A stretch of DNA of 64,000 nt from Setoptus koraiensis. Taxonomy: Eukaryota > Animalia > Arthropoda. Positions within the stretch are counted from its first letter, which is position 1; each line of letters opens with the position of its first letter. A program made the translations under genes and the position numbers. This document shows, piece after piece, positions 4,598 to 28,700 of the stretch. Location: NCBI GenBank assembly GCA_048013815.1, contig CM106585.1:21514001-21578000 (forward strand). The letters are read 5' to 3'. The notes beneath the pieces are model-generated. The model saw only the letters and a list, made by a program, of their open reading frames with translations, had not been told where the DNA came from and made no database searches.

Positions 4598-4837
4598 CCT
4601 AATTGGTTTTAATTTAATTAATTAATTTAAATTAATTTCTAAATTTTGGTGTGACTAATGATGAATAATAACCTAGATCAATTGGAGATCATTCTCGAAT
4701 GAAACATATACTGATCAACTCGCTCTGAGTCTATAATTGACATCACGTGACGAAATATTCAAACTGTGACGTCATCGATAACTTAATCAATTGCATCGCA
4801 TTCCACCTGATTTATAAGCAGAAGTAAACCGTGCGCG

Positions 4838-5012
4838 TGTTAGGGTTTTACTATACTATGCTTTATTTATATATGTTTATGCTATAAAGTAATATGTGTA
4901 ATCATCTATATGTATGGTCTCGGCACATATATATATGTGCCGAGTTACAGTGATGGTTGAGACCTATGGCTCAACTCAATTGAGTCCGCTTGAGCGGGCT
5001 CAGCTCCTGACA
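4838..5012 (-). mobile_element. 3' LTR (175 bp) of the minus-strand gypsy element
   Basis: Minus strand reads PPT GCAGGGGGA, then TGTCAGGAG...CCCTAACA; contains a 26-bp palindrome around TATATA and an AATAAA; its start resembles the LTR at 22520. Confidence 0.8.
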
Positions 5013-5504: not shown

Positions 5505-6098
5505 GATAGCGTTGAGATAAATCTCTTACATCAACTCGTCGGCGATTTGACAATAAGTGCAAGTCACACTTCCGGTTTGCAAACTGACGCGATTCGGCTG
5601 TACTACCACCTAGTTACGGTCTCTTAAGCAGGTTCACACCCACTATAAAAGAAACTCGGCCCGATCACGGGCCCCGCCCACTCGACTCCCATTCCTCGGG
5701 AAGAATCTTTTTTAGTTAGGTGGCCGTCAGTCGTCCCGCCGGAGGCCGCAGGCCGTAGGCGTGGACGACTGGAGGCCGAACCCCTCTTCCGGCCCGGGCC
5801 CAACCTGCTCGACTGTGGTACTCTTTTCCGGTGGTAAAATCCCAAAAGTTTGGGGATATATCCCTGATCGTGTGATGTACGTGAATCTGGTCCACACGTG
5901 AATAGGCACGCGCAACTGGTAGCAAATAGTAATAGTGCACGCGCTGAGACTCGGTGTGTAGTCTGACTAATTGCGGGTGCAGTTTCACTCCGCGCCGCGC
6001 GCATCGGTCACGCCTCTTCAGTTCGACTGCTTTTACTCGACTTCTAGAGCTTCTAGGTGCAATCTACCTTCGGTATAAAGATGTTGGTACCCTAACCG
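5505..6098. mobile_element. Unclassified 594-bp insertion in the gypsy env, flanked by ATGT repeats
   Basis: ATGT at 5501-5504 and 6099-6102; removal rejoins env as EEVKVDIDSHQNK; about 130 bp is similar to 20963-21090. Confidence 0.65.
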
Positions 6099-7906
6099 AT
6101 GTCCACTTTCACCTCTTCTTTTGGTTCGAGGTGGTTGAAATTTTTATAACACGCAACCTCTTTCCAATGCTCGGTGAGCTTAGGCGTGAAATTGTACTCG
6201 CTGCAGTTGAAGTTGACGTATGGGGCTACCTGTGACTCGTGGAAGGGCCTTATGCAATTCGACGTCGTATTCATAAGAATTAGGGCGTTCCCTTCGTATC
6301 GACTCAGACACGGCCGTCCCGTCAAGTTGACATATACGTCGAACGGATCTGCTTTTAAAACGACCGATTTACGGTCTACCACTCTTGTAGTGAAGATTAG
6401 CCTCATACCAGTGACGTTTCCGCCTAGCAGGCGGCAGGACTGTGCAACTGATGACTCGGTATCGATTGAAGACAGCTCGGCTGAGTTTGTGAGGGCGCCG
6501 AGAGAACGGGATACGATACCGTTCTTCCAGTTGTCCATCACATTTATCAATGATGTGGCACCGGACCCTATTTTATTCGCCAAGAACAGCATGATCCACG
6601 TGTCGCGTGGGATTATCGCCATCATGTGCCTCAGGAATACAGTGTTATTATCCACGCGCGCAGCCAAGGTTTTTAAGAAATCACCGTGTACATGGCTCAT
6701 GGCTTCAATTGGGCCTTGTTTCGCCTTTATCTCGGTTACACTCTTCAGAATGTATTCTGTTTGTTCGTTAATTGATTCGCCCTTGTGGAAATAATGCCAG
6801 ACACTCTTGAATAAGTTCGAGCAGCAGTACTCGACGGCGGCTCCTGCTATGAACGACAGTTGGCGTGGCGGACGTGGCTGAATTACGTCTTCAGCGGCTG
6901 GTTTACACCAACCGCTGTTTAGGCGTTGTACTATATCTGTATCAAAGTACCATTCGCAGTATTTATGGGTCTCTTCGCCAAGAGCATTGCATGGTGACAC
7001 GAGTACGACGGTTAGGTCCCAATGCTTTACGCCCTGAACAACCGTAGAGCTGAGTCTTTCCCAGACGACTGGTGATTCTTGATGGAAATCGTCGAATTGC
7101 GACGAGTTTGTCGCCATCAGAATCAATGCGATGAACAGCAGATTAACGCTACTCGGTCGGTTTGGTACCCCGTGTGGAGACTGTGTTCTCGGTGTCCGTG
7201 AGGTCGTATTATCGTTACCGTCTTCGTCGCTGCTGGTATCGTTCGCGTCCGAATTGAGACTGGGTGGGTTTACCTCTTCGTCCTCGTCGGGTGCGTTTCT
7301 TTCGGTGACCATACGCAGCGCGGACACATGTCTAGTTAACTTTTTGCTGTTACTAGTGTGTTCAAGATCGTAGACGTTGTTCGCTTTTAGGGCTGTAACA
7401 GTGTATGGTCCTTCACTATTCCCCGCTAGCTTTGCATTTCGGGCAAGCTTTTTCAGCACCCATACCTGGTCACCGAGTTTGAATTGTGTGTCCTTTCTGT
7501 TGGTGTTGTATCGCACTTTGGAGGCCAGCTTTGCTTGCGCGTTTTGGTTTGACACTTTTGCGATATTGTCTTCCAACTGCATTTTAGCCAACTGGGAATA
7601 CAATTGATGGACGGTTTTGTTTGGCCGGATCACGGCATCGTTCAATGGTTTTGGCTCCCTTCCGAACATGAGTTCGAACGGAGTTACGCCAGTTGATGTA
7701 TGCACCGTAATGTTGATTGCATAAGTGATGAATGGAAGGGCATCGTCCCAATTATCTACGGTGAACTGGTCGCCGCTATTGATTAGGATTGACAACTTGT
7801 CGCCGATGGTGGCGTTCACTCTCTCGACGATTGCATTTCCCTGCGAGTGCAGGGGCGTAGACTTAACATGTTTGACGTTGAATAGGTTACAAAGGACCTG
7901 TTGCAT
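6099..7906 (-). pseudogene. Ty3/gypsy integrase C-terminal half fused in frame to env (5'-truncated element)
   Basis: HSQGNAIVERVNATI, TGVTPFELMFGR and GPY motif (EGPYTV); then hydrophobic LLFIALILMATNSS, ESPVVW, RPPR site and KADPF...C...YEG...NTTSNC. Confidence 0.9.
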
Positions 7907-8019: not shown

Positions 8020-9232
8020 AGCCACTAGGCGGCGTTGCTGTTTTTCGCTTTGAGGGCCTCTGGAGCCCCAGTCTTTTGTCATAGAGACACGTTCTTGGTA
8101 TCGTTGGATAGATCTCTGGTTGATGCATCTATAGAGGGTACAATTTTCCCCTAGACTCGAATTCAAGTCCGGAGAAAAATCAAAAGAAAACTTTGGCCCC
8201 GTTTTGTGGGGCCCCAAGAATGTCCGCCCAGAAATTCGACAGCTCATAAAAATAGCCCTATAGAAGAGCTTCAAGATGATATATAATACAACGAAATCAA
8301 ATCGAACGCCGATGACCAAAAATGAGAAAAACCACACGCACCCCCCACCAAAAATAGAGACTAAAGGTGGATCGGGTGCTCCGTTGAATGACGGCCAAGT
8401 CCAGATCAGGTATTTTGGGTATTTTTGGGTAGAGTATTGTACCCTGATACCAGACCGGGTATTACGCGAGTGCGAAAATTCTTCATTACTGAGATACCAG
8501 AGGTACCGCATTCCGGGTATTTAAGGGTATTTGAAGGCATATAGACATTAGAATTACGGTGATTTATCCCCACTCTCCACTCGTTCACTGATAGACTGGT
8601 ACTGTGAGTAGTACTGACCCCTTTTACGATCGGCCTTGAGCCTCCCAACATCTCTAGCAGTGCGTATGCGTACCTAACATAACCAACAGTGAATTTCTAA
8701 CGGTTCAGGTGACGCAGAGTGTGAATTTTCACTCTACTTCAAAATTGATATAACAATCTAGACAACTGTGCGAAGATAGTTGTATTGAGGCCCCTCTGAG
8801 GCCCTAAATTCGGGTTTTTTCTTATCTCCGGAAGTAGGCTCTACTGCACTTCTGGACTGTCAAAAACGTCTTCATGGGCCCGTTCAGAGCCCACGTGTCT
8901 ATTTTTATGGAAATCGAGCTTGGCTCCTAATCAAGAGAGCACCCGGTCTGCCTTTCATCTCTAATTCGAGGGGATGTGTGAGTGGTTTTTATCATTTTTG
9001 GTCATCGGCGTTCAATTTTATTTTGTTGTGTTATATATCATTTTGAAGCTCTTTTATAGGTACATTTTTATGAGCTGTCAAATTCTTGGGCGGACATTCC
9101 TGGGGCCACTCAAAATGGGGCCAAAGTTTTCCTTTGGATTTTTTTTGGACTCGGATTCGAGTCTAGGGAAAAATTATACCATTTATAGATGCATCTACCA
9201 GAGAACTATCCAATGATACCAAGAACGTGTCT
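8020..9232. mobile_element. Foldback/MITE-like element with long imperfect inverted arms, right end in the gap
   Basis: About 8090-8540 is the imperfect reverse complement of about 8780-9232; arms share the GGGTATT and CCGGAAGT modules of the MITE at 20729; left boundary approximate. Confidence 0.75.
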
Positions 9233-9732
9233 NNNNNNNNNNNNNNNNNNNNNNNNNNNNNNNNNNNNNNNNNNNNNNNNNNNNNNNNNNNNNNNNNNNN
9301 NNNNNNNNNNNNNNNNNNNNNNNNNNNNNNNNNNNNNNNNNNNNNNNNNNNNNNNNNNNNNNNNNNNNNNNNNNNNNNNNNNNNNNNNNNNNNNNNNNNN
9401 NNNNNNNNNNNNNNNNNNNNNNNNNNNNNNNNNNNNNNNNNNNNNNNNNNNNNNNNNNNNNNNNNNNNNNNNNNNNNNNNNNNNNNNNNNNNNNNNNNNN
9501 NNNNNNNNNNNNNNNNNNNNNNNNNNNNNNNNNNNNNNNNNNNNNNNNNNNNNNNNNNNNNNNNNNNNNNNNNNNNNNNNNNNNNNNNNNNNNNNNNNNN
9601 NNNNNNNNNNNNNNNNNNNNNNNNNNNNNNNNNNNNNNNNNNNNNNNNNNNNNNNNNNNNNNNNNNNNNNNNNNNNNNNNNNNNNNNNNNNNNNNNNNNN
9701 NNNNNNNNNNNNNNNNNNNNNNNNNNNNNNNN
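9233..9732. other. Assembly gap (500 N)
   Basis: Run of N. Confidence 1.
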
Positions 9733-9791
9733 ACACGAACACGAACACGAACACCAACACCAACACCAACACCAACACCAACACCAACACC
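9733..9791 (+). repeat. (ACACGA/ACACCA)n hexamer microsatellite
   Basis: Read directly; lies between the gap and the copia-2 gag ATG. Confidence 0.95.
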
Positions 9792-12700
9792 ATCATCATG
9801 GATGACCAGAACCAACCCCAGAACCGAATGGTAGCACTGGGTGACACGCAGAGCCACCAAAGCCGACTGCAAGTTATTCGATTGACCGGCCAGAAGAACT
9901 TCACGTCATGGAATAAAATAATGAGTCGGGCACTCAAGAACAGAAAGCTTGAAAGTGTAGTATTTGGTGAAGAAGACGCAAATGAAAGCGCAGCAGCTAG
10001 AGAGAAAAGAGATTCCGAGGCATGGGAGTTGCTCATTACCTCGATGGACCAAACGAACATCGATAAGTTTGCGGTATTCAACACTGCCAGAGAGATATGG
10101 GAGAGGTTGATCAGCACCTACGAAAGAGAAGGGAACGTAAGCATGAACAATGACTTCATCCAGCTCTTTACAATCAAGCTAGATGATGCCAACGGCATGT
10201 CAGTCTACATCTCAAAAATGGAGACTCTAGTGGATCGGCTCGCGGGACAAGGCCAGGCACTGAGTGAGAACGCTCAAGAGGCCAACCTCCTGAGGGGACT
10301 TGGCTCCGACTAGGACGTGTTCAAGCAGGTGTGGGACAGCACCCCAGTACAGTCGTTAAAGAGCCTCAAAGATAGGCTACTCCTTGAGGAGGTTAAACTA
10401 AAAGCAAGAAACATACACGAGCCAGAAGCCAGTCATACTGCTCTGTTGAGCAAAGAATATGGGAAAAAGGCTCACTACGAGAAAAACTACACAAATGATA
10501 AGAAAGTCGACTCCTCCTGCAACTACTGTGGAAAGTAAGGCCACTGGATACGGGAGTGCAGGAAGAGGAGGCGAGACGAGTCTGCATCTAAACCACCTGG
10601 TCGCTCGCAGGAATATCGCCAGAGCACGGACAGAAACGTTTCTTTCATGATGAGAAACAAAGAACAAAGTACAGAGGATTGGTACTCAGACCCCGGGTCC
10701 TCTGGACACGTTTGCAAAACAAGGGACTACTTCTCGAGCTGGGAACTTTCCGCCGAACCCATCGAAATAATGGTGGGTAACAAGGAAACGATCCGGGCAT
10801 ACGGATCGGGGTCGATCCAGTTTGTAAGCGAAACGAACCGAGGACCCTTGAGCATAACCATTAACAACATCCTATTCGCACCTGAAGCAGCCGAAAATCT
10901 AATCTCAGTTGGGGCGATCCGTAAACGGATCTGCACGACATTTATAGAGGACCACTGCTACTTTCAGCTGCGTACAGGGAGTAAACCCACGGTCATGATG
11001 GGTATATACCAACCATCTGGCCTGTACCGACTAAAAATAAAACCAATCATCACGAAGATTCTATTTGGCAGGAGCAGCCGCACAATGAGCGAATGGCATA
11101 GAGCTCTAGGCCACATCGGTTCCGCACAGATAGAGGACGTGATAAGGGGTGGACTGGTATCCGGAGCAAGCATCATCGATCACCAGTCACTCCCTCAGTG
11201 CAGCATCTGCCCTATGGGCAAAGCAACGAATACCACGCACCCGCCTACTACTAGGGAAATGGCGAGAGAAGTAGGCGACGTAATTCATATGGACCTGATA
11301 GGGAGACTCCCACCAAGCCTGGGAGGCAACGAATACGCTCTAATACTCACCGACGAAAGCAGCAACTATAGATCCTTTTATCCGCTCAAAACGAAGGATC
11401 AGGTGGTGGAAAAGCTGGAAAGCTACTTCTCCACGATCGAGTGTGAAACGGGGAGGCGAGCTCGCAGCCTGTGGTCAGACTGCGGGTCCGAATTCCTCAA
11501 CCAACGGGTCCGAGTAGTTCTTGCCATAGAACATATAACCCTACACCACAGCGCCCCAGCAGAACGGGAGGGCTGAAAGGTCTAACAGGACCATTATCGA
11601 GAGCGCCCGGACACTCCTAGCATCAAGCGGACTACCACAAACGATGTGGGCTGAATCCTGCATGACCGCGACCTACACCCTAAATAGGGTAGGGAAATCG
11701 AAAGTCCCAGGCAAAAGCCCATATGAAATGTGGTTCGGGCGCAAGCCTAGCATTTCACACATGCATCCATTTGGCGCCAGTGTCCAGGTGCTGGACAAGC
11801 CGCGGACGGGATCAAAATGGTCGCCCAAAACACTTCTAGCATACTTAGTGGGCTACACTGAAAGGTGTAACACTTATAGCTGCTACATTCCAAGTACACA
11901 GACAGTCCGAGTGACAAGCGATGTGATCTTCCGAGATCACCCTAACGCGACGCCACTGATAAGAACACGTGAAATGGACGACCCAAACGAGTGTGCTTAC
12001 CAATTCCATTCCACCACACACACCCATCACACTACACCCGCTCAGTTTCCCACTGAAGTTCCGAAGACAGAACCAAACACCCTAAACAATGATTTAGATA
12101 CAAATAACGAGGCGCCAAACCAGCCACGGAGCGCGCTGTCCGAGTACTTCGAACAACTCAACGAACACGACGGTCGACATTCTGCCATGAAGATATACCG
12201 TGTCCGGAATTCAGCTTAATCTCTGACAAAGGAGACGAGATTGAGCGGACAGGACCAATATCAATTTACAACACCGACAACGCACCATGCGTTGAGAATA
12301 GGGATAATAAACAATCCACACCCAACGAACGGCCTGCCAACAAAACATTCACAAAACCCACTGTCATGGGAAGCGTGAGAAAACAGATAACAAATCTGAT
12401 AAATCCACCTAAGAGGGTAGGTGGAGCTGACCAGACTCCACCACAGGCTACACAGAACTTTGATGAGCCCACAATTAGAGACCAGACGGGGAGAGTAACC
12501 TGTAGGGAGGGCGGCATTGCCTACCATATTAACATATGCAGCATTGACCCTGCTACATATCGTGACGCCATGAAGGGTGACGACGTGGACAAATGGCTTG
12601 TAGCCATAGAAGACGAAAGGCAGGCTCTGGAGGAGAATAATACCTGGTCCATAGTCGAGCGGACAAAAGATACACATGCATTATCGTCGAAATAGGTCTT

Positions 12701-13883
12701 CACGAAGAAGCGTCTCCCCTCAGGAGAAGTCGACAGATATAAGGCGCGACTCGCGATAAAAGGCTTTACTCAACGTCCAGGCCTGGACTATGGGGGAACT
12801 TTTGCCCCTGTAGTCCACCTGGAATCGATAAGAATACTATTTGCACTCATAGCGCGATACAGACTAGAGACATTACAGTTCGACATCCAGACGGCCTTCC
12901 TAAACGGGCAGCTTGATGAGGAGATATACGTGGAGGCGCCGGAGGGGATTAGCGTCCCTCCAAACTGTGTCCTCAGGTTGAACAAAAGTCTGTACGGCCT
13001 GAAACAGGCACCGAGGGTGTGGAAGACCAGCTTCGACCAAATCCTGTCAAGGCTCAACTTCCAACCACTCCTTTCAGATCCATGCTTATTTTCAGGCGTC
13101 ATAAACTCAGAAAGAGTTATCCTAGCCGTATACGTCGATGACGGACTGGCGGCATCGGCGTCAAAAGAAGCGCTCAGAACTCTACTTAAGTTGTTATCCG
13201 ACGAACTCAAGATTAGAGAAGTGAAGACGAGGAAATTTGTAGGAATTGAATACGAAAGGACAGAGGACAAGTCGAAATTAATCCTCCATCAACAATCCTA
13301 TATCACAAGAATGCTAGAGCGGTACAACATGTTAAATTGTAAAGGCGCCAAAATACCGATTAACGACACTAATGACCTGCAGATGAGAAACGATGGTGAC
13401 AGACCAACCCAGCAGCCCTATAGGGAGTTGCTGGGAAGCCTTCCATACGCGGCTTGCCTCACCCGTATCGACATCTGCTTTGCAGTAGGCTTCCTCTCAA
13501 GGTTCTGCAGCGAACCATTGGAGAAGCATTGGGTTGCTGCGAAGAATGTACTAAGATACCTGAAGGAATCGGCCAGCCTAGGTATCTGTTTTTCAGCCAC
13601 TGGCACCATGAAACTAGACTGCTTCACTGACGCTGACTGGGGAGGCAACCTGCTCGATAGAAAATCAACCTCAGGTGCCATCTGTCTGCTGGCAGGAGGA
13701 CCAATATGTTTTAAGACGAGAAAACAGACTGTTGTCGCCCAGTCGACAACAGAGGCCGAGTACTTGGCGGCCAATCTAGTCGTACGTGAAATACTGGGGG
13801 CTAAAAATGTCCTAGAAGAACTAGAAATCAAACTTGATAGCATTAGCCTTAGCATGGACAACCAGTCCGCCATAAGGCTTATT

Positions 13884-14396
13884 GGGCCGGGCGAGCGAAG
13901 CGAGCCGGTCCTATCAAGCGAAATTTTTTTTCTTTCCCCCTTTTGCAGCAAAAAAGTTCATAGAGTTTTCCCCTTCATCGTGTTGTCGTAAATCTGTGTG
14001 CTTCAGTGGAAAATTGTGTGCTTTCCCCCCCGTGCAGCAAAAAAATCCCGTTCAATTTTCCCCTTCGAAAAATCAGCTGTGTTGTTCCTGTTAGTGTTAG
14101 TGTTAGTGTTAGTGTTAGTGTTAGTGTTAGTGTTAGTGTTAGTGTTAGTGTTAGTGTTAGTGTTAGTGTTAGTGTTAGTGTTAGTGTTAGTGTTAGTGTT
14201 AGTGTTAGTGTTAGTGTTAGTGTTAGTGTTCGTGTTCCCTTCGGGACGGTTTCTATGACCGCCGCGGTGGGAGATCTTGGGAGACTTTGGGAGGTTTTGG
14301 AAGACCGTGGGAGTTTGTGATTTGCAACACAGAAGAAGAAAAATTTGAAGCGAGCTCGCCCGGCCCCCTTTCGTTAGTCAGAACGAAACGGTTGTT
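13884..14396 (+). mobile_element. HINE/DINE-1-like non-autonomous Helentron (513 bp) in copia-2 RNase H
   Basis: Subterminal inverted repeats GGGCCGGGCGAGC (13884-13896) and GCTCGCCCGGCCC (14354-14366); 3' hairpin TTTCGTT-AGTCAG-AACGAAA; central (GTTAGT)23; TT ends; removal restores SAIRLI-KNAEYHQDTKHMDI. Confidence 0.85.
14090..14229 (+). repeat. (GTTAGT)n microsatellite, about 23 copies
   Basis: Read directly. Confidence 0.98.
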
Positions 14397-14603
14397 AAAA
14401 ATGCAGAATATCACCAAGATACAAAACATATGGACATTAAAACCCACTTCATCAGGAACCACTTCAACAGGGGACTCTTCGAGCTCGGATATGTGCCATC
14501 CAGTGACCAGAAGGCAGATATCTTGACAAAAGCTCTCCCACCTATATCTCACTCTGCCATGGTAAAGAAGTTAGGAATGGCAGTAGCAACTACGCTGTGT
14601 TGA

Positions 14604-14673
14604 TGGTACTGGCACCGACAAACGGAGAACAGCAATTCAACATCGAAGATCCGATCCTGTGGACCAGAGACAA
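14604..14673 (+). pseudogene. Copia-2 env N-terminus (signal-like segment and EDPILW motif)
   Basis: MVLAPTNGEQQFNIEDPILWTRD, one base out of frame with pol; resembles LMATNSSQFDDFHQESPVVW of the 6099-7906 env. Confidence 0.75.
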
Positions 14674-14943
14674 GTAATACTGATCAAATCAGTATTTCGA
14701 GCGCTTAATTTTTTGAGTGGACGAGTATCGATGGAAAATTCGGGGGCGTATATGACAAGCTTTTTGCCTCCTCTTTGGATATCCAATGGTGGAAGACGTC
14801 AAACCTCTAGTTTTACGGATGATTTATATCTACCGGATACAATACAAGGTTAATTATACGCGTGGGTGCAGTGATCTGACATTTTCTCAGCTATTACGTA
14901 AAATGACCGAATTATGCGTCTTTGGCCACGATAATTAATTTAA

Positions 14944-15420
14944 ATACATACACCAGGACGCAATGGCGCACAATATGCTATAGCGCGCGCTCCATGTGCG
15001 GTGTGCTACTCAAATTGATCGTTTGGTCGTTTCATACCATCTAAAGAGTATCACAAACTAGATCCAGGTTTCTCAAATTTTCACCATAGTTAGATACACA
15101 TGTCAGCTGCCTGCATGCGAAAATTGGTGCATTTTCATCGGTTAGTTTTGCCACAATAAATAATTTCAATACATACACCAAGAAGCAATGGCGCACTATG
15201 TGTTAAAGCGCGCGCTCCATGTGCGGTGCGCTACTCAAATTGATCGTTTGGTCGTTTCATACCATCTAAAGAGTATCACAAACTAGATCCAGGTTTCTCA
15301 AATTTTCACCATAGTTAGATACACATGTCTGCTGCCTGCATGCAAAAATTGGTGCATTTTCATCGGTTAGTTTTGCCACAATTAATGATTTCAATACATA
15401 CACCAGGACGCAATTTTCCA
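14944..15420. repeat. 225-bp tandem repeat, two full copies and one partial
   Basis: atacatacacca recurs at 14944, 15169 and 15394. Confidence 0.92.
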
Positions 15421-15424
15421 CTAT

Positions 15425-15830
15425 GTGAATTCATCTAGTTAGCATCGCAGCATTGAGCGTGTTACTCTCGTCTAGTTTAATCTACATTAGAATCAACAGT
15501 GCTGAGAAGCAGTAGTCATTCTGAGTAGCTTCTACTGTTATACAATCTTCTAGTTCCAACACCTCTAGCTTCCAGTGTACTAAATCCGAATTGTAGACAG
15601 CTAGCCTTCTGCTGTGCTAAATTCATCTAGTTAGCATCTCAGCTTTGAGCGTGCTAATCGCGTCTAGTGAGTGAACGCGCATAGCATTATATGTGCTAAA
15701 TTCAACTAATCAACATTGTAAGCTTTGAGTGTTCTAAATTTATCTAGTTTATTTCTCACAGTACAGCTTTCACCGTGCTATTTTTTTCTAGTTGAAAAAA
15801 GCACTAATTTGTTCTACCCACGTGAATATC
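15425..15830. repeat. CTAG-rich degenerate repeat block, duplicated at 18447-19045
   Basis: Both blocks share aattcatctagttagcatc units and end in ttgttctacccacgtgaata. Confidence 0.85.
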
Positions 15831-16467
15831 GTGGGCTTGCGTCGTGCGGATGAGTCTGAAATTTTTCGAACGCCCCAGTCGATATGAATACTGCGATTTT
15901 TGAACATGTTCTCACCTTAAGAAATCGCTAGTTTTTTCTACATTCGTGCTGCTCACTATCATCAACAACTATAGCAAGTCTCATCAGCGTGCACTTGCCC
16001 GTTCACCCTGCAGAGAAATTTTTCGAACGCCCAAGTCGATATGAATACTGCGATTTTTGAACATGTTCTCACCACTAAAAATCGCTAGTTTTTTCTACAT
16101 ACGTGCTGCACACTGTCATCAACAATCTGAGCGAGTCTAATCAAAAGTTTATTGCCCGTTCACTCTGCAGAGAAATTTTTCGAACGCCCAAGTCGATATG
16201 AATACTGCGATTTTTGAACATGTTCTCACCGTAAAAAATTGCTAGTTTTTTCTACATTCGTGCTGCTTACTATCATCAACAACCATAGCAAGTCTCATCA
16301 GCGTGCACTTGCCCGTTCACCCTGCAGAGAAATTTTTCGAACGCCCAAGTCGATATGAATACTGCGATTTTTGAACATGTTCTCACCCCTAGAATTTTTT
16401 AGTTTTCTCTACATGCTTGCTACACACTGTGATCAACAATCAGAGCGAGTTTCATCAAAAGTTCTGC
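15831..16467. repeat. 157-bp tandem repeat, about four copies
   Basis: cgaacgccc recurs at 15867, 16024, 16181 and 16338. Confidence 0.92.
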
Positions 16468-16477
16468 GATTGTTTGC

Positions 16478-17827
16478 AATTTGTTCGCCATTTTCGACGT
16501 CAACAGGCTCGGCGAGAGCGAGGAAACCTTCCTTCACCGCATGGCTATCTACAAGGAGCGCCTAGATGCTTTCGGCATGCACACGCAAGTAGTGAACGGT
16601 AACGACGTTGCCGACTTAGTGGAGGCTTTCAATCAGGCCTCCCTGGTCGAGGACAAGCCGCATGCCATTCTGTGCAAAACGCTCGAGCGGCGCGGATTTC
16701 CCGACATCGAGGACAAGGACAACTGCCACAGTAAGTCGCTCGCCACCGCCACCAAACATGCGCTCGAGGTAGTGCAGGTGCTCATCAAGAACCGCGATCA
16801 CCGCCACAAGCTGAAACCTGTTGCCCAACTGGCGCCAAAGCCCGACCTGAGCCAAGTGAAACTGTCCGATGGACCCAACTACAAGTCAGGCGACAAGGTG
16901 GAATCGACACAGGCCTACATATCTGCGCTGGCCAAGCTGGGACGCACCAATGATCGTGTTGTTGCCTTTGTCGCCGACACGAAGAACTCAACATTTGCCG
17001 ACAGTTCCAACAAGGAATTTCAGCGACGCTTCTGCGAGTGCTACATGGCCGAACAGAACATGGTCGGGGTGGCCGTTGGGGCCGCTTGCCGCGACCGCTC
17101 AATCGTCTTCGTATCCACGTTTGCCGCATTCTTTTCGCGAGCCCACGATCACTTGCGTATGGCCGCCATATCGCAGTCCAACGTGAACTGCGTCGGTTCC
17201 CATTGCGGCGTCAGCATAGGCGAGGACGGACCCTCACAGATGGCACTCGAAGATCTGGGCATGTTCCGTACCATACCCAATTGTACCATATTTTACCCCA
17301 GCGATGCCGTATCCACGGAGCGTGCCATTGAGCTGGCCGCCCAGTCTAAAGGTATCACGTTCACGCGAACGTCCCGTCCGGCTACGCTCAACGTTTACCC
17401 AAACAATGAAACATTTCAAGTGGGCAAGGCCAAGGTGTTGCGCAAGGACGCCCAAGATCAGGCGCTGGTCATCGGTGCCGGTGTGACGTTGCACGAGGCC
17501 CTGAAGGCCGCCGATCTATTGCTGGCCGAAAACAAGACCCACATCAGAGTGCTGGATCCGTTCACTATTAAACCCTTGGACGTTGAGGGCATTTTATTTA
17601 ACGCCAAAGAGTCCAAATCGCGCGTCGTCGTGGTCGAGGATCACTACCCCGAGGGCGGCATTGGCGAGGCCGTATTGAGCGCCCTGGTGGGACACCAGAT
17701 TAAGTTCGCTCACTTAGCTGTTAGGGAGGTGCCAAGAAGTGGACCACCCGATGTTTTATTGGCAAAATATGGTATTAGTGCTAGCAATATCGTCACTGCG
17801 GTTTATCGTCTTATTGCCAATGTGTAA
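16478..17827 (+). pseudogene. TKT: 5'-truncated animal-type transketolase (captured fragment)
   Basis: DVNRLG, DTKNSTF, AEQNMV, STFAAFF, GSHCGVSIGEDGPSQMALED, RVLDPFTIKPLD, VEDHYPEGGIGEAV; lacks the N-terminal region including the GDG ThDP motif; AATAAA at 17968. Confidence 0.93.
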
Positions 17828-18077
17828 CATTTTTTAATCAACACATACAGGCTAAGCTGGATATTTGAAGACCTCAAAAGTATAGAAACTGTTTGAATAG
17901 TAGGCATTGCCGGCCTCGAGGGCCCTTGATATTAAGTGGCTGTAGTTAACAATTAACAATTGGTTGTAATAAATATGCTAAAGCTATACATTATAAGTAT
18001 CACATTTTCCATATAATCAAATGGTTTATATTATCGTCATTGCCAATACTGCCACCGCAAATACTTTCTGTGCCGTT

Positions 18078-18446
18078 ATTCGTGCTGCTTACTATCATCA
18101 ACAGCCATAGCAAGTCTCATCAGCGTGCACTTGCCCGTTCACCCTGCAGAGAAATTTTTCGAACGCCCAAGTCGATATGAATACTGCGATTTTTGAACAT
18201 GTTCTCACCGTAAAAAATTGCTAGTTTTTTCTACATTCGTGCTGCTTACTATCATCAACAGCCATAGCAAGTCTCATCAGCGTGCACTTGCCCGTTCACC
18301 CTGCAGAGAAATTTTTCGAACGCCCAAGTCGATATGAATACTGCGATTTTTGAACATGTTCTCACCCCTAGAATTTTTTAGTTTTCTCTACATGCTTGCT
18401 ACACACTGTGATCAACAATCAGAGCGAGTTTCATCAAAAGTTCTGC
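18078..18446. repeat. 157-bp tandem repeat resumes after the transketolase segment
   Basis: cgaacgccc at 18160 and 18317; near-identical to 16100-16467. Confidence 0.92.
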
Positions 18447-19102
18447 TGTGCTAAATTCATCTAGTTAGCATCACAGTATTGAGCGTGCTACTCTCGTCTA
18501 GTTTTATCTACAATAGCATTAACAGTACTGAGAAGCACTAGATATTCTGAGTAGCCTCTACTGTACTACAATCTTCTAGTTCTGACGCCTCTAGCTTCCA
18601 GTGTACTAAATCTGCATTGTATACAGCTAGCCTTCTGCTGTGCTAGATTCGTCTAATAAGCATCCCAGTATTGAGCGTGCTAATCGCGTCTAGTTTGATC
18701 TACAATAGCATTAACAGTGCTAAGAAGCAAAAGTTATTCTGAGTAGCTTCCTCTGTTCTACAATCTTCTAGTTCTGACGCCTCTAGCTTCCAGTGTACTA
18801 AATCTGCATTGTATACAGCTAGCCTTCTGCTGTGCTAAATTCATCTAGTTAGCATATCAGCTTTGAGCGTGCTAATCGCGTATAGTGAGTGAACGCGCAT
18901 AGCATTCTATGTGCTAAATTCAACTAATCAACATTGTAAGCTTTGAGTGTTCTAAATTTATCTAGTTTATTTCTCACAGTACAGCTTTCACCGTGCTATT
19001 TTTTTCTAGTTGAAAAAAGCACTGATTTGTTCTACCCACGTGAATAAACGTAGCACCCAGACCCATCCCAATAGCTGCTTAATTAAAATTAAGCGCTAAA
19101 AA

Positions 19103-20728
19103 TGTGTTCTTTCTCAGTGGGCAGGTAGACGAAGTCGTTAACGTAGAGTTAGTAGACCAATGTCCGGTCGCCTTCAGGAACCTCACAGGACTTGGGGCAC
19201 TAGACGGAATGCTCACAGAGGTCTGCACCCGGAGGTTCGACTCCGATATCATTGGACTGTGGCGGAATGTCGTGGATGAGCATACCAAGGTAGCAAGAGA
19301 CGGTGGTGCGTCTCTAGCCACCGTGGCAGCGCTCACCGGCATCTTTGCTAGCGTAGCCGCCACCATCAAGGTGAAGGACATCGAGAAGGAACAAAAGATT
19401 CGAAGTGAGCTGGCATTTCGCCTGGGCGAGTCAGTTTCCGCCATCCAGAATAAGCTGATCCTCGCCAATAGTCGTATCGCCCTCAAGGTAAACAACTTAG
19501 AGGACCGGCTCGAGAAACTAGGTCACGTTGTCGCAGTCCAACCAAGGCTACAAGACGCCCTACATCAAGCCCTAGCGGCAATACGCGACTATAGAATCCG
19601 GTTAGAGCTACTGAGGGGCCAGTTGAAGGTGAATGCAGAAGTCCCTGAGATAATGCTCGATATGTTCAACCTGACTCATCTGACCAACAAGGCAACGCTA
19701 AGCCACTCACAAGTCTACAGGGCATCGGTGCAGGGGAACCAACTTAGACTGCAGGTGACCTTGCCCAAGGTGGACTATCACGTGTCAGTGTATAGAGCCA
19801 AACCTTTTTTCTACACAGGTATAGACAACAATAAAGTATGTATGTTTAAATACCGAGGTCCCGAGTACATGCTGCACAACAGGACCTCGGAGTGCATGCG
19901 TCCTGTGACAGCGGATGAGATTGTAAATAATGCCATCGTAGGGGAAGGCTGTACCCATCAAAGGGCCCTAGATGTAAAAGGACTGTTCACACCAGAAGAC
20001 TGCAGGAAGTTGTCAGCGACAGAGTTCACAAAGCAACCCGCCCAACTCAAACCTCATGGTGTGCGGATATTCATAAATTGCCGAGGACTGAACATCACCA
20101 TAGGAGGGAGAGTGGTCAGATGTCCGAATCATGTGTTTAGCGTGAACGAGGGGACAGAGTTTCTGGTTGATAAAACGTTCTACAACTTCCAGAGGACCGA
20201 CACCGTGAAAACTATGCATCTCTATCACGTCCCAGCCAGAATCAATCTCAATCTGGGGACATCAAAGACGGTGTTCAAGGCACTTGATGCTGAAGATATG
20301 CAGGAAATAGAGAAAGCCAGCGCTCAACTGAAGAAGGAGCAAATTAAATTGAGAGTCATGTCTAATTCTACAGAGGATGGACCATGGTTCAGCCTCGAAC
20401 CAATCTTTACTATTGGAAGTGGAGTCCACCGGTTCATCACCTCTGTAGGGTCTTACATGGGGATGATCGTAGGAATCTACATCATATCAATGGTCATCAA
20501 GGAAAAGTTCTGCGGGATATCAACCACAATGGCGATTATAGCATTGCTCCCTATCATCATATGTGTAGAACAGACTGGATATATAGAGATATCATATTCA
20601 GCAACTGAAGCCACGAGGATCATCAAAGGCTTCCAAACCAGGATGGCCGAGAAATGTAACCTCTGGGAGCTGGACAAGGACGCGAGCATGTGGCAAAGGG
20701 GTGTCGGATATTATCCCGTATCCATCTC
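19103..20728 (+). pseudogene. Copia-2 env main body: class I fusion-like ectodomain, TM, second hydrophobic segment
   Basis: KVAR then hydrophobic GGASLATVAALTGIFASVAA, heptad region, RAKPF...C...YRG...NRTSEC, CPNHVF, TM YMGMIVGIYIISMVI, then TMAIIALLPIIICV. Confidence 0.85.
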
Positions 20729-21677
20729 GGTTATAGTAGCGAATAGCGACCACGCCCAATTTGGGTATTTTGGGTATTTCTGGGTAGGATATTGTACCCT
20801 GATACCCGAACAGGTATTCCGGAAGTGCGGAAATTCTTCGTTACCGAGATACCCGAGGTACCGCATACTGGGTATTTTAGGGTATTAGAGGGCATATTGA
20901 GGGTAAAGTCGGCCGTACCTATCCGCTAGGACATCCGGTCAGATGCTGAGGTCCTCGCACCGGAGGAAAATCATTCCTAGAAGCCACAGGAAGCGAATGA
21001 AAGCGGTCAAACTGAAGAGGCGTGGCCAATGCGCGCGGCGCGGAGTGAAACTGCCCGCAGTTAGTGAGACCACCCACCGAGTCCTAGCACTACTGAGGAT
21101 GATGAAAATTGAATAAAGGCTGAGCCCTAACTTTTTCGACGCTTTCGACCTCGCGGACCGCGCAGACTCGGAACTCCGCTCGCACTGACCCCTATTCCGA
21201 TCTTTACCGACTCGGCCTTCGGCCTCGCAAGCTTGCCTCGCTTCGGGTTGAGGGCTTCGCCCTCAACCCTCGCTCGAACCGACAACCCCGGCCTTCGGCC
21301 GAGTAATTGTCACACACCCGAACACCAGAAACAATGCGAATGCGTGCCAGGCTGAGTGCGGCTCGTGAGACGTCAGATGTGACTCGAATTGCGTGACCGG
21401 AAGTTGGTCCAACAGTGAATGGTGGATATCTCCTGAGTGGATGATTGTGAGGGTGAGATTCTAACTGCATGTTGACGGTGGCAACTGGACCTATTCGAAA
21501 ATACCTAAATTTCTAGTCTGAGGCACTCCTGAGGCCCGGAAAATGCTTTTCCCCGTATCTCCGGAAGTAGAAATTTCCGCACTTCCGGACCTTCAAAAAC
21601 GTTCTTTGGGGCCGCGAAGCGGCCCTTGTGTGGAGTTTGAAGGGAATCGGGCTTGGTCGTTGTTCGCTACTACACCC
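20729..21677. mobile_element. 949-bp non-autonomous TIR element, GG termini, 8-bp TSD (Merlin-like by inference)
   Basis: TIRs GGTTATAGTAGCGAATAGCGACCA and (reverse complement) GGGTGTAGTAGCGAACAACGACCA; TSD TCCATCTC at 20721-20728 and 21678-21685; removal joins YYPVSIS to CAIAQKNITCPC in frame. Confidence 0.9.
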
Positions 21678-21685
21678 TCCATCTC

Positions 21686-22139
21686 CTGTGCCATTGCACA
21701 AAAGAATATCACATGCCCGTGCAGTGTGATGACAGAAACCATACCAATCTTACCATCTTCCGAAAGAAAACTCCTGAAGGACTTCCCAGCAACCAACAAA
21801 TGTGGTGAAAACAAGACACTAGAGTTCGGAAACCAGCTCACCTCATTTAAAACACCTACGAACTATCTGTGCAACACAGCCAGGTTAGAGGCAAGCAGTT
21901 CTTGGCCCAAAGACACCCACAGTCATCTGGTAGCAACATGATGCACTGTAGCGAAATTCGCATATAATTGTCACTGTCCAGGAAACGATCACCAACTAAT
22001 ATTTAATGATGTCCTGACAATCACAGTTCAGGCGCTGGAGAAGAGAAAGGAATTAACCAGAGAAAACATATGCCAGACGGTGGTACAACCGGAACCAGAA
22101 AATTTGCCCAAGTCTATCATCGACAAATTGTATGGATGA
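21686..22139 (+). pseudogene. Cys-rich C-terminal extension of the copia-2 env frame, one premature stop
   Basis: CAIAQKNITCPC...HLVAT*CTVAKFAYNCHCPG...DKLYG*; TGA at 21939-21941 is in frame with the final stop at 22137-22139. Confidence 0.75.
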
Positions 22140-22164
22140 GCACACGAGCTCAGAGCGAGGGGGG

Positions 22165-22327
22165 TGTTGGAATGCGCTCTGTGCCGTCCTGTGCACATCA
22201 CTATTCTGCGCTATGAACAGAGAGATGTTGCGCTACTATATATAGCGAACGATGCTCTGTGCATGAATTACTTAATAGTTGTACTCTTTACGAGAATAAA
22301 GTATATGCTATTAGTAAAACTCTAACA
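22165..22327 (+). mobile_element. 3' LTR of copia-2 (163 bp)
   Basis: Purine tract AGAGCGAGGGGGG directly before TGTTGGAA; TATATA and AATAAA inside; ends CTAACA. Confidence 0.8.
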
Positions 22328-22393: not shown

Positions 22394-22519
22394 TGTTGTA
22401 TGGAGCCTACTTTTGTGACTGTGCTGCGCACAGATCTTCTGTGCGCAGCACTGCTCATTTATATCCATTCTGTGCGCAACTATAAAAGGCGCGCACATTA
22501 TTAAATAAAACGATACTTA
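22394..22519 (+). mobile_element. 3' LTR of another LTR element, split by the gypsy insertion; last 17 bp at 30263-30279
   Basis: PPT AAAAGAAGGGAGA then TGTTGTATGG; TATAAAA and AATAAA; resumes after the CTTA TSD and ends CTCTTACA at 30279. Confidence 0.7.
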
Positions 22520-22730
22520 TGTTAGAGCTCCGCTCAGATGCTCAGTAATTGTAATTGGCGCACAGTATCTCTGTGCGGCTTAATCCAGCATTGTGCATCG
22601 GCACAGTTTCTGTACTTCATCTTGCACGACTATATAAAGTCGTGCACAACGTTTAAATAAATAACTTTTAGATGGACAAACTAACATGGAGGTTCTGGAA
22701 TCGCACTCTGATTATTGAGAATTCATAAAA

Positions 22731-25700
22731 GTGGATACCAACGAGGTAAACCCCCTCGAGCTTCTAGAAGCAGTGCAGCGCAGCAACATTAAGAAGACCA
22801 GTAAAAGTTTAATTGAAAATATTATTAAAAGTGTTAGAAGAATAGTGGAGTCAGATTCATCAGAAGAAGAATTATCAGACGACGAATTCAACAACGATAT
22901 GGCTGACAACGTACAACAGAATCAACGAAATGACAACGAGGGCGACCACTTCGACCAGGTTGACCCTACTCCGGGAACTAACTTCAAGATGTTAAGAAAA
23001 CCGGAGATGTTTAATGGAGATCCAGAGAAGGCCAGACAGTGGCTCGATGATTATATTTATTGTGCTCGTGTCAATCAGTGGACCGGTACAACTCCCGCGA
23101 TAAGATTTCCTGCTTTCCTAGGTGGAAGTGCGAGGAATTGGTTTTGTGTGGCTATCGAAGGTTCCGACGCGGAACATGATTTCGAAGAAATAAGAGAACA
23201 ATTCAACTGTTGGTTCCTCCCCAGATCCACAAAAGTAATGATAGCGAGCGAATTGGATAAGCGCCGCCAAAGAAAGGACGAACCAGTGTCTAATTTTATA
23301 ATCGATATGCGCCTTTTATGTAAACAATACGATGCCAAAATGCCTGAGGAAGAAGTCGTCGATAAGATACGAAACAGAGTCTTGTCGAGCTTCGAACCCA
23401 ATTTATCGCAAGCTAACCCGAAAACTATTAGGGAATTGGTGGATGCGTGTGTTGCCATCGAAGAAGGTAACAAACGACGAAATGGAAACAACGTGATCAA
23501 CAATAATGTAGCAGCAGTAGTGGCAAAGAACACCAGTAAAACATGCTTTAATTGTGGCGGACGAGGGCATCTGTCGAAGGATTGTCCTTCCCCACCAGGC
23601 GACAACAGCGGTTATCGTGGTAATTCACACAACAAACAAAGATCATCATCGTATAATAATGGTAATTATCGCAATGGCGACAATGGTCGGTCATATAACA
23701 ATACACGTGGTAACCCGAACAACAATTATCGTGCACAGGGCCGAAACATTAACATGAACAACAAACGCATGAACTCCAATTCAACGGATTATCGCCAAAA
23801 CAATAACGCTAATAACCGACAGAATTTTAACTCATTCCGTAACAACGGTCAACGAAATTTCAACAATAGAAACGCCAACAATTACACTAACAACCATTCG
23901 AACGGAGGAAGATTCAACGACAACGGGCAGGCTCAGCCCCATAATAATTACGGAGATAATCAACAAGCAGGATATTCAAGAGATGCTAGACAAACCCAAC
24001 ACAAAAATGTATGCTCTGTAATCAATAAACAACAACCCTTGATAGCTTATATTATGCCTGTACAACCAATCATGGTGACTCCGTTAATTAACAATCAGAA
24101 AGTATCGGCAATCGCTGACCCAGGATCGTCGGTCACAATATTGAGCAAAGGAAAAGCTAACGAACTTGGTCTAGAACTGAAATCTTCCAAAGCAGGAGAA
24201 GGCCTCAGAGTAGCAAACAACGCACCTTTTGGTCTATGTGAGGAAGCGACGGCCAACATTAAATTGATGGTAGACAACAAATCAGTCGAGACAGACTTTG
24301 ATATAATAGTCTCGGACCAGCTGCCAGCAGAAATGCTATTGGGCCTGGATCTTTTAACTCACTTGGGATTAATTGTGGATTGCCCCAGACGAAAACTAGC
24401 GTGTGCATTCACAAATGAAGACAAAGATACAGAAGAAGGAGTATGTTTCTTGGTAGAGGCTATCGACATTCCACCTAGGTCGTCGATGATCGTCGGACTT
24501 GGGGTCAATGGCAAACCGAGGGACGACATTGTAATTAGCCCAATGAACAGAGAAGATGTTCTTCTCATTCCGTACAGCTTGAACAAGGCTAACCACGGAA
24601 GAACGTTCACAACAATAACTAATCCTTCTACGACAAATTTAACGATTAAGGGCGGTGTAGAAATAGCAAAATGGGCTACGTTAGAAGAGAAAAGAAAGAA
24701 ATCAGATGCAGATTTTCACGTTAACGCCATCCAAAAAGTCGACGAGACTATGTCAATAGAGGTAGGCGACCAACTAAATATTACACAGCAAGACCAGTTG
24801 ATCGGCTTGTTGAAAAGCTATAGAGATGTGTTCTCAGACGGTACTAGACTGGGATGTACGACTGGGTTTCAACACAAAATAGAGTTGAATGACCCAACGC
24901 CTTTTAAACACCCACTTCGAAGAATGGCCTATAAAGAGAAGGAATTGATTCAGCGCCAGATTGACCAAATGATAGAGAAAGGGGTAATTCAGGAATCGCA
25001 AAGTCCTTTCGCTAGCCCCATGGTCCTAGTGAAGAAACGAGACGGTTCAATCAGATTTTGTATTGATTTTAGAAAGTTGAACGACCGGACAAAGAAATGG
25101 ATTATGCCTTTGCCAAACCAAGAAGAAATAATGAATGCAGGCACGGGCGCTAATTTCTTCACGACTTTAGATTTAAATAACGGATACTGGCAAATGCAGC
25201 TCGAACCTGAATCTAGACAATATACTGCTTTTAATACAACAGACGGGTGTTGTAGCGAATAGTGCCACACTCAGATTTCCACCAAACTTCACACATGGGG
25301 CCCTTAGGGCCCCCAAACAACGGATTCGCTGGTCCGGAAGTGCGGAAACTTCCGGTTCCGGTTTTACACAAAATTCAAGCTAGAGCTATGGAACTTGATA
25401 TGCAGCAGGATATGAACATTCTGAGTACAATGGAGTTCGTTTTACGTGTGTGCGGCTTCCGGTTGCGGAGATATTCAGGAAAAACCGCGCGGGTATCCCG
25501 CTCGGGACGAAGCATCCGCGCGCACGAGTAAATACGTGCGCCCTAGAGGCTCCGATATGTCGCCACACAAGATGGCACAGCGCTAGATCTGTGCTTGAAT
25601 CATGTTCCGAGGCTTTTAACATTTCTTCTTGTCTCTTACTCTCGTCTATGGTTTGCAGTCATGTGAGCGGAGGGTAGAGGGCGCAGCCCGATACCCGAAG

Positions 25701-28700
25701 CGCTCATCAACCCTACCCGAAGGGTTCCCGTCGCACGCAGTCGTCGCGGGAGCGACGACGGAGATGTGACGGCCTCCAAATTACGAGGCCGCAGGCCGAG
25801 TTCTCAGACCTATCGCAGGTTCATACCCGAGTGCAGCGAAGCTGAAATTCGTCAACTTCCGGTCTTCCAAACCAATAAATATGCCGATATCTCGAGAACC
25901 GGAAGTCGCACCGAGCTGAAAATTATGCCATTGTAGTCAGCGTCCTTTGAAAGGCTAGTATGGTGATTTTCAGACCTCTAGCTCTAACTTGAGGTAAAAC
26001 CAGAACCGGAAGTTTCCGCACTTCCGGACCACTTTTTTCGTTCTATTGAGGTCAATATAAACCTTTACCGAAAGTTTCATCAGAATCTGAGTGTGGCACT
26101 ATTCGCTACAACAACCCAACAGACAACCAATACGAATTCCTACGCATGCCTATGGGTTTAGCCAATGCGGCTGCCAGTTTCACAAAAATGATGAACCTTA
26201 TAATGGCAGGAATAGTGGGTAGACAAGTACATGTTTACCTAGATGACTTAATTATCATGAGTAGAACCTGGGATGAACATTTAGAGAGCCTGACAAACGT
26301 TCTTGATCGGATTAAACAAGCAGGTTTAACAATCAAAATAGCGAAATGCACGTTCGCGAAACATGAGGCAGAGATTCTTGGTCATTTGCTGAGCAAGGAC
26401 GGTATTAAGCCGCAACCCAGCAAACTAGCGGCACTTGAACGGTTGGCTCCGCCAACGAGCGTGGAGCAGGTGAGGCAGTTTCTGGGATGCGCCGGCTATT
26501 ATAGGAAGTTTGTACCCGCATTCGCTTCTATTGCGGCACCACTGACCGACTTGACCAAGAAGAACGAACGGTTCAAGTGGGGTCAAGCGGAACAGGACAG
26601 TTTTGACCAGCTCAAGCAGGCTCTGCTGAACAGCAAAGCTATTGCTTACTTTAGAGATCAAGGAGAATTGATGATAAAAACGGATGCATCCAAGACAGGT
26701 TTTGGTGCAATTTTACTACAGAAACAGGACGGCGATTGGAGAATAGTCGCGACTACGAGCCGACGACTATCCTCGGGCGAGAAATCACTTGGTATTACAC
26801 ATTTAGAAGGAGCAGCACTAGTTGATGCAGTAAAGAAATTTCGGCCTTTCATTTACGGCAGGAAGGTTAGAGTGATAGTTGACCACTGCGCACTGTGTTG
26901 TTTAGCTAAAACTAAGCCCTTAGAAGGTAAATTGGCACGTTGGGCCATAGCTCTTTCCCAATTTGATCTGACCATCGAATACCGTTCAGGTAAACAACAT
27001 TTGGACGTAGACTGTTTGTCACGCCAGCCTGTTGCAGACTGCGACGACAAATTGGATGAAGAAAAGTTTGTGTTCGCTTTAATCCCATTGGAGGATTATC
27101 GCACAGAATATAAATCCGACGAAGAGTGTAAAGCAGCGTTACAACAGATACACCGTGGCGATAATACTTTTAATTTGACAAACGGCTATATATATAGAAA
27201 CGGCAAATTGCTTGTACCGTTAAAGTTTAGAAAACAACTTATAAAGACCTTGCATGCACAAGGGCATCCAGGAGAAAAACAAACAACAGATCTCATTGAG
27301 CGCAATTATACCTGGAACGATCTCAAAGAGAACGTGAAAGGGCAAGTAGCATCTTGCAGCACATGCCAAAAACACAAAGTCCCGAGAGAGAAACCTTGTG
27401 GGTTAATGAACTCTTTCACTCCTCATAGACCTTTTGAAATGCTTTGCCTTGATCATTTAGGACCATTAGACAGCACGAGCAAAAGCAACAAGCACGTCCT
27501 CGTAGCTATTGACTCATTCACAAAGTTTGTCATTGCAGCACCAACACTAACAACATCATCAGAAGAAGTAGTTAAATTTATTATCAATAATATAATCGCG
27601 GTACATGGTGTACCACACATATTATTCACCGATAACGCCAGTGGTTTCACAGCTAAGCTCACCAAAGACGTATGCAAAGCTTTTGGTATCGAGTTAAAAC
27701 ATTCAACACCGTATCACCACCAAGGCAACAGCATTGCCGAGCGCGTTATACAGACATTAAAAGACAAAATCGCAATGGCGATGACCGATATAGATAACTC
27801 CGAGTGGGATGACCATGTTGGCATGGCATGCCTAGCAATTAATGCAACACGACACACAAGTACAAAATACAGTCCATATGAAGCATTGTACGGACGACAA
27901 GTGAGACTACCACGAGAAGCAACTGATATCTCAGACGAAACCGAAGTCTACGCTGAGAACTTGCAAGCACGTCTTGAGTTGATAAGAAGAGATGTAGCTA
28001 TTAGTATAAGCCAGAGCAACGAAACTTCAAGGAAGTATTACGACGCTAAACGACAAGAAAGAAAGTTCAACATAGGCGATGAAGTTATGGTTCACTTTGA
28101 GCCTAAACAAGACGCCAGGCCAAATAAACTTTCGAGTAACTACAGAGGACCATACGAAGTGATCGATGTGAAACCACATGATATTTACAAATTAGATCTT
28201 ATTGGAAGCAAGAAGAAGAAAATTACAATGGCTCATGTTTCTCGCTTAAAGGCATATCGAAGAGACGACGAAACGGATAGTACGCCAGACAGGATAAACA
28301 GCGATGACGTCGAAGTTATCGACCTGGACGCGACGGACGCAACAGAAGGAAGGATAACGAATCAGGAGCAGCCGTTACGCCAATCCAGAAGAAAACAAAA
28401 TTTGCATGCATCATTAGCTCTTATGTTCATCATGGCCATAAGCAGCGCATCCGCAGCTTTAATACTACCACCAACGGAGACAATTATCTGGACAGAAAGT
28501 CAGATCAGACCTGTAAAAGATCTCACTATATTCCAAATCGATTGGGACATTGCTAATCCATGCCAGACTCTTTTCAGGAATATAACATCCGACTCAATTA
28601 TGAACGAGAATTATGTTACTCACTGCCAAGAGAAATTTGATGAAGCGAGAGGGAACTTGGAGAAATTCTGCGATGGTTCCGAGGTTCCCCAACGAGACAG

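Follow-up and report, generated by a model that had tools for sequence, protein, structure and literature searches.

A Ty1/copia element of an arthropod genome with a predicted F-type envelope gene joined to its pol

Can a Ty1/copia retrotransposon of an animal possess an envelope gene, and what would such a gene do for it? The question is raised by a 64,000-nucleotide stretch of Setoptus koraiensis DNA (contig CM106585.1, positions 21,514,001 to 21,578,000), called the window below, in which positions 9798-22327 (+) are occupied by a Ty1/copia element. Its parts follow one another in the order gag, protease (PR), integrase (IN), reverse transcriptase (RT) and RNase H (RH), then an envelope-like gene (env), a polypurine tract (PPT) and a long terminal repeat (LTR). 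We consider, with a probability of about 0.7, that the env product is a working particle fusogen. An internal signal would free it from the gag-pol-env polyprotein, or else a sub-genomic RNA would encode it; after maturation at a basic site it would be employed in cell-to-cell, probably soma-to-germline, spread.

This architecture, already proposed in a first-pass annotation of the window, is borne out by the order of the Pfam domains, by alignment with a natural relative, and by direct reading of the PPT and LTR. The Pfam scan placed Retrotran_gag_2 at 9798-10310, Pol_BBD, gag_pre-integrs and rve at 10539-11573, SH3_retrovirus at 11539-12216 and RVT_2 at 12696-13883, giving the copia order PR-IN-RT-RH. 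The relative, P0001, is a natural protein of 1829 amino acids that runs from copia PR-IN-RT-RH into env in one open reading frame (ORF), without any change of frame; it was the only match of the env-piece search among longer proteins (7994 candidates scored), at 73% over the whole query. Aligned to the window by tblastn, P0001 forms tiles in collinear order at 10770-11558 (70%), 11554-12189 (59%), 12186-13895 (72%), 14391-14600 (79%), 14603-14671 (57%), 19092-20741 (72%) and 21678-22133 (66%), and not one query residue is lost at any of the three sites where insertions interrupt the window copy. For insertions 1 and 3, this continuity of P0001 at the protein level is the only check made of the empty site. 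Insertion 2 lies about 4 bases further left than in the first-pass annotation (14670-19098).

Besides its three insertions, the window copy carries four stops (Table 1), of which the one at 21939 lies within the env frame, and three frameshifts (near 11555, 12187 and 14600); it is a dead member of its lineage. Past RNase H, the frame enters a hydrophobic segment and the env-like region through the frameshift near 14600, where the covering contigs of X1 and X3 show no indel. This one-base break had been recorded before, the further stops and frameshifts had not; by comparison, it is real in the window copy but a lesion, because relatives read through the same place in one frame.

Does the joint between copia pol and env belong to this locus or to a lineage? 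P0001 is 81% identical to the window in RT-RH (395 columns), and identity to it amounts to 70-81% in pol and 72-76% in env. The P0001 env measures about 725 amino acids, in agreement with the frame of about 720 first proposed. The next closest pol, that of P0151 (71% in RT-RH, 51% over 9801-11558), runs into the signal-like segment and the start of env and then ends. Both of the closest relatives of this pol, in other words, enter env. A HMMER search with env through 1.84 billion representatives returned 209 relatives at E<=0.001. Among the best 150 of these 209, 39 have a copia RNase H upstream in the same ORF (2 of the 39 on the motif only), 11 have a gypsy integrase, and 100, mostly fragments, were unassigned. 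Seven of the top ten are copia-linked, and the first gypsy-linked env comes at rank 30 with 27% identity. When 24 long matches of our choice were scanned, 14 proved to be complete gag-PR-IN-RT copia ORFs with env, 1896-2187 amino acids in length, the others being partial copia (2) or gypsy (8). The RT search added one further copia-env protein, P0231, and no env relative came from the viral_contigs or metagenome_contigs collections. By this comparison, the joint of copia pol and F-like env is a lineage trait, wider than one locus. The env frame has stayed open across families whose RT-RH sequences are only about 50% identical, which implies that env has been under selection.

Another explanation could be that a copia pol and a gypsy env were brought together only once, by chimerism or misassembly. 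The element is indeed split by three insertions, shows no visible 5' LTR and is flanked by two env-bearing gypsy elements. However, P0001 and P0151 have the same joint, and the gypsy envs nearby are only about 20% like the env of the element. Contigs of X1 and of X3, a separate study, pass straight from 14669 to 19099 (30 letters on the short side), skipping 14670-19098, and contigs of X4 and X5 carry the filled left junction of insertion 2. Insertion 2 is therefore polymorphic, present in some samples and absent in others, and pol joined to env is a real stretch of DNA. X4 and X5, possibly one data set, lack coverage at 19154-20518, which is uninformative. Contigs of X1, X2 and X3 (two samples) that reach the end of an LTR copy run on into the leader repeat of the window gag, and the LTR at 22165 therefore belongs to the copia element and not to an env placed behind a gypsy integrase. 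P0001, the contigs joining pol and env and the 14 full copia-env ORFs refute a chimera or misassembly, to which we leave a negligible chance.

As to the LTR pair itself, the 3' LTR and PPT are seen and LTR copies are linked to the gag leader repeat by contigs, with 1-6 differences among the LTR variants, and no single piece spans the element; the 5' LTR of the window falls outside readable sequence, an assembly gap lying at its expected place (Table 1). The stretch behind the LTR copies (past 22328) resembles a primer site of the half-tRNA kind more than one of the 3'-end kind, and no tRNA gene for comparison was found within the window.

To characterize the env product, the window piece was folded with 109 relatives. 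The model (mean pLDDT 79.9, pTM 0.57) displays a 70-residue helix and a beta-rich head. Foldseek returned 165 PDB chains at E<=0.001, every row shown being a paramyxovirus or pneumovirus F, with human parainfluenza virus 3 F as best match (E 1.2e-7, TM ~0.25). VIA-align gave Z values of 8-9.2 over 255-307 residues, all to F, with a root-mean-square deviation (rmsd) of 7.5-23; the best rows were Z 9.2 (304 aligned, rmsd 22.9) and Z 9.1 (305 aligned, rmsd 8.8). Near the top of the BFVD matches stand lispivirus G, paramyxovirus F and baculovirus F, behind an uncharacterised abalone herpesvirus protein in first place, and the atlas gives env 0.94 to Fusion_gly clusters. Judged by its predicted fold, env is a paramyxovirus-F-type class I fusogen. 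That a copia lineage of animals bears a class I fusion protein sharing ancestry with gypsy envs, as proposed earlier, is supported by joint ORFs and matches of the predicted fold, and the comparison with F proteins called for in that proposal led to paramyxovirus and pneumovirus F by Foldseek and to baculovirus F in BFVD.

The env body contains, in this order, an F2-like part, a basic cleavage site, a fusion-peptide-like segment, a long heptad helix, a beta-rich head, a membrane anchor and a second hydrophobic segment. Hydropathy and the model together indicate that signal-like segment, fusion-peptide-like stretch, heptad helix and anchor are all present; in P0001, the hydrophobic peaks fall at 1100 (signal), 1205 (fusion peptide), 1585 (anchor) and 1606 (second segment). 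By hydropathy, a signal-like segment begins the passage from RNase H to the ectodomain, a median 27 residues after the final RNase H motif, in all 37 copia rows scored, two further rows without the motif being left unscored; of 198 control windows in RT-RH, 11 show such a segment. An R-x-x-R stands ahead of the fusion-peptide-like stretch in 31 of the 40 envs linked to copia.

Env could also be real and selected without free infectious particles, acting as a surface fusogen or receptor blocker for passage by cell contact or for the exclusion of competing enveloped elements. Copia particles are known as intracellular, env as a part of pol would be made in no more than the low amounts of pol if there is no sub-genomic RNA, and the furin site of the window copy is non-canonical. 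Nevertheless, all parts of a particle fusogen have been kept across many families, and the gypsy elements of the window share the in-frame pol-env layout, so that we regard this alternative as unlikely.

The history of env was followed in two trees. That of RT-RH comprises 83 copia rows, 23 of them with env, and no non-copia rows; matches covering <60% of RT-RH and all but 18 named long database proteins were left out, and "env-less" denotes an ORF ending just after RNase H, downstream of which a separate env may exist. P0001, P0151 and the window RT belong to one clade, whose seven rows all bear env (SH-aLRT 100). As expected by the first-pass annotation for a member of the Pseudoviridae, the window RT is nested among copia RTs in this tree of copia rows; it lies away from the plant rows of the tree, none of which is a named reference sirevirus. 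The env-bearing rows form four groups amid env-less rows, requiring at least 3 changes. The env tree has 53 rows (40 copia, 13 gypsy), the 100 unassigned matches and P0029, which is too short, being left out. The window env falls into a clade of ten copia envs (100/99), and ten gypsy envs form the sister group of another copia env clade (100/97). Over the whole tree, linkage switches between copia and gypsy at least 3 times. Copia envs come together in 0 of 200 bootstrap trees, and one origin of all copia envs was rejected by the approximately unbiased (AU) test under LG+G4 (p-AU 0.0011), with long-branch caveats. The env groups largely mirror the RT groups, P0066 and P0150 being the exception. 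As read from these trees, env is a gene that crossed the border between the copia and gypsy superfamilies more than once, long ago; since then it would have travelled mostly with its pol.

The same trees bear on the possibility that env is a passenger, which copia elements acquired time and again from gypsy neighbours through template switching and which decays without function. The intermixing of copia and gypsy envs (at least 3 changes) and the interleaving of env-bearing and env-less copias (3 changes) would agree with it, and nests of transposable elements such as the window favour recombination. Against this, env clades match RT clades over deep divergence, env identity between the window and P0001 is near that of pol, long ORFs remain open, and the nearest gypsy-linked env is as distant as rank 30 among the matches listed. 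We therefore hold a passenger env to be improbable, more so than a selected env without particles.

The gypsy envs of the window, which had been expected to group with the copia env, sit on long, distant branches of the env tree and are about 20% like it, and its nearest relatives are the envs of other copia elements; an origin from the neighbouring gypsy elements was rejected on these grounds. The similarity pointed out earlier in the spacing from a tryptophan to a glycine is a weak argument by itself; alignment with the gypsy env at 28390-30078 (21% identity, E 1e-13) nonetheless upholds the homology. This env ends a gypsy element at 22719-30081 (+) in which integrase continues in frame into an F-like env (ORF 26050-30081); an insert bearing inverted ends splits the element at about 25245-26116, and the repeat pair 22519-22686 / 30091-30258 is 99% alike. 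A second, broken gypsy integrase-env fusion lies at 4700-7906 (-), and its env groups with the copia-linked P0066, P0150 and P0231 (99/93, long branch).

In the window's clade, env continues beyond the second hydrophobic segment into a cysteine-rich tail (P0001 1636-1829) with ten cysteines, kept across the clade in the alignment. It is found in 14 of the 150 env matches listed, all within or near this clade and none gypsy-linked, and one more relative was found among 49 candidates. The tail models as helical (pLDDT 65.7). Its fold search gave at best Z 6.0, to unrelated helical proteins, with no BFVD match at E<=0.001 and no atlas match >=0.9; one sub-threshold Pfam match was judged to be chance. 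These failed matches do not amount to proof of a new fold, and the conserved tail is a candidate new protein family.

Several points weigh against a particle fusogen. Fusion, particle formation and infectivity are predictions from sequence and a modelled fold. Global structural agreement is low (TM ~0.25, rmsd 8-42 A, pTM 0.57), for which a difference in conformation is the likely reason, and the atlas recognition value for env lies under its usual range. The window env has no Pfam match, Fusion_gly is found in 4 of 110 relatives, and the best F-chain match by sequence reaches E 4e-4; such sequence-only signals are weak, yet they point to F too. The window copy and P0001 are without the canonical R-x-x-R, having a single Arg with Lys at P4. 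The control for the signal-like segment in env-less tails, 1 of 45, is biased, those tails being short. Long branches run through the env tree, which is unrooted. All 10 env-bearing relatives looked up are one-member clusters (Logan or JGI), whose hosts and LTRs were unseen. Finally, most close pol relatives among the unnamed matches, 42 rows, stop at RNase H without env, and env is therefore dispensable for copia replication.

How would a particle fusogen be made and used? Intact members encode gag, pol and a predicted F-type env in one reading frame. The internal signal would send env into the endoplasmic reticulum, where signal peptidase would cut it from pol; alternatively, a sub-genomic RNA whose first codon is the Met at the head of the signal would serve for env. 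Trimers would form from the F0 precursor and, once cleaved at the basic site, would cover particles as they bud and bring about their fusion with the target cell. Env would likely let particles enter neighbouring cells, as for insect errantiviruses, and its most plausible use would be to move the element from soma to germline; the cell-to-cell and soma-to-germline spread of Drosophila errantiviruses, as treated in the Discussion of PMC13524379, serves as analogy. In the window's clade, the second hydrophobic segment past the anchor is likely a second signal, which would place the cysteine-rich helical domain of about 190 amino acids outside the cell as an accessory protein. A broader proposal is that these elements are undescribed enveloped, infectious animal Pseudoviridae with a polyprotein F fusogen and several env trades with gypsy, in which, in the window's clade, a secreted cysteine-rich protein of new fold might serve as attachment or host-modulating partner; taken as a whole, this is tentative, and we give it slightly less than an even chance.

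The coordinates of the element are given in Table 1. Insertion 2 is likely recent, because it is absent in the X1 and X3 contigs and present at the left junction in X4 and X5. We take it to be Helitron- or Helentron-like from its end hairpin and subterminal inverted repeat. It holds a 464-codon transketolase fragment at 16433-17827 (Pfam 16433-17824) amid tandem repeats of 225, 192 and 157 bp, and transketolase occurs in several divergent copies among the contigs. A second, unrelated copia element (488-3262, +; 29% to P0001) is cut after integrase by a copy of the end sequence of insertion 2 (3255-3349, 84%). An ORF of 344 codons between repeats, 3587-4621 (-), has no Pfam match. The neighbouring genes are of animal type (secretin-type hormone receptor, transglutaminase, receptor kinase), and 31000-61000 contains long single-exon host genes for an ABC transporter, a receptor kinase, WASH, a DEAD helicase and a PAP2 phosphatase. 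The host genes point to an intron-poor animal genome.

Table 1. Parts of the copia element and its interruptions, in window coordinates
Feature	Position	Strand	Basis
Assembly gap, 500 N; expected place of 5' LTR and primer-binding site	9233-9732		
Leader: short hexamer-type repeat immediately 5' of gag start	9733-9797	+	
Copia gag, stops at 10311 and 10536	9798-10538	+	Retrotran_gag_2, E 3e-16
Protease region and integrase (IN ahead of RT, copia order)	10539-12189	+	Pol_BBD, gag_pre-integrs, rve, SH3_retrovirus
RT with the larger part of RNase H; stop at 12693	12186-13883	+	RVT_2, E 9e-53
Insertion 1, within RNase H: short element, inverted ends and hexamer microsatellite	13884-14396		Read by eye
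RNase H end and start of env signal-like segment; frameshift near 14600	14397-14600	+	79% to P0001 1040-1109
Remainder of signal-like segment and first env residues	14603-14669	+	57% to P0001 1113-1135
Insertion 2: Helitron/Helentron-like, tandem repeats and transketolase fragment	14670-19098		
Env body, F2-like part through start of cysteine-rich tail	19099-20728	+	Model, F-protein matches, hydropathy
Insertion 3: repeat with relatives at 8386-8545, 8786-8923, 5948-6057, 25245-25361	20729-21685		
Env cysteine-rich C-terminal domain, stop at 21939	21686-22139	+	66% to P0001 1677-1828
Polypurine tract	22152-22164	+	Read directly
3' LTR, 163 bp, TG...CA ends, one copy in window	22165-22327	+	Read directly

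How does this element relate to known systems? F-type envs have been described in gypsy elements across animals, and in the sections of that study covered here all elements are classed as Ty3/gypsy, a gypsy pol served as query, copia env-like ORFs are mentioned only by citation, and the env tree broadly follows the pol tree (Chary and Hayashi, PMC13524379). The word "copia" is absent from 7 of its supplement files. PMC12440569, in the part covered, names errantivirus and Anakin as env captures and not copia; the parts covered of PMC5962544 and PMC2774666 add nothing on animal copia env. No description of an animal copia with an F-type env was found in the open-licence PMC and bioRxiv literature, with Repbase, subscription journals and preprint supplements outside this scope. 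Enveloped LTR retroelements are thus known, and the combination of an animal copia backbone, an in-frame F-type fusogen and an extra cysteine-rich domain was not found in the literature covered. Proven fusogens are described there for gypsy, BEL and retroviral backbones, and for copia only env-like ORFs of uncertain nature, as far as these sources were covered. F-type envs kept in frame in several copia clades would mean that copia, with its opposite order of IN and RT, likewise made the transition from transposon to enveloped virus. They would also mean that env genes pass from one superfamily to another, a point relevant to the recent claim of ancient, rarely recombining env-pol pairs. Intact natural ORFs, for example P0008, make the fusogen question testable.

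Compared with the F proteins of paramyxoviruses, pneumoviruses and baculoviruses, lispivirus G and the env of rotifer TelKA, the copia env is alike in predicted fold and in the order of its parts; it differs from the viral F proteins in its low identity (~10-13%), in being carried by a retroelement polyprotein and in having no known attachment partner. In the LTR superfamily BEL/Pao, which likewise captured viral fusogens, superfamily and domain order are different; Roo has a single gag-pol-env ORF. The sireviruses (plant Pseudoviridae, e.g. SIRE-1) share the copia backbone and a coding region for a membrane protein after pol, and their env-like ORF is separate from pol. Unlike them, the window lineage has an animal host, an env in frame and a likeness to viral F that can be demonstrated. 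Whether the env-like ORFs of plant copias are envelopes is "still unclear" according to the part of PMC5408684 covered, which also places an F-type env in rotifer TelKA; the BEL/Pao captures are an F-like env in Drosophila Roo and a chuvirus glycoprotein in Anakin (PMC13524379 and PMC12440569, in the parts covered). Finally, the errantiviruses and other Ty3/gypsy elements (Metaviridae) carry, after pol, an F-type env equipped with signal peptide, furin site, fusion peptide, stalk and anchor (PMC13524379, in the sections covered); the window element resembles them in this plan, with a weaker basic site in the place of the furin site. In contrast to their gypsy pol (RVT_1, IN after RH), the backbone in the window is Ty1/copia (RVT_2, IN before RT), and the env of its clade bears an extra cysteine-rich tail.

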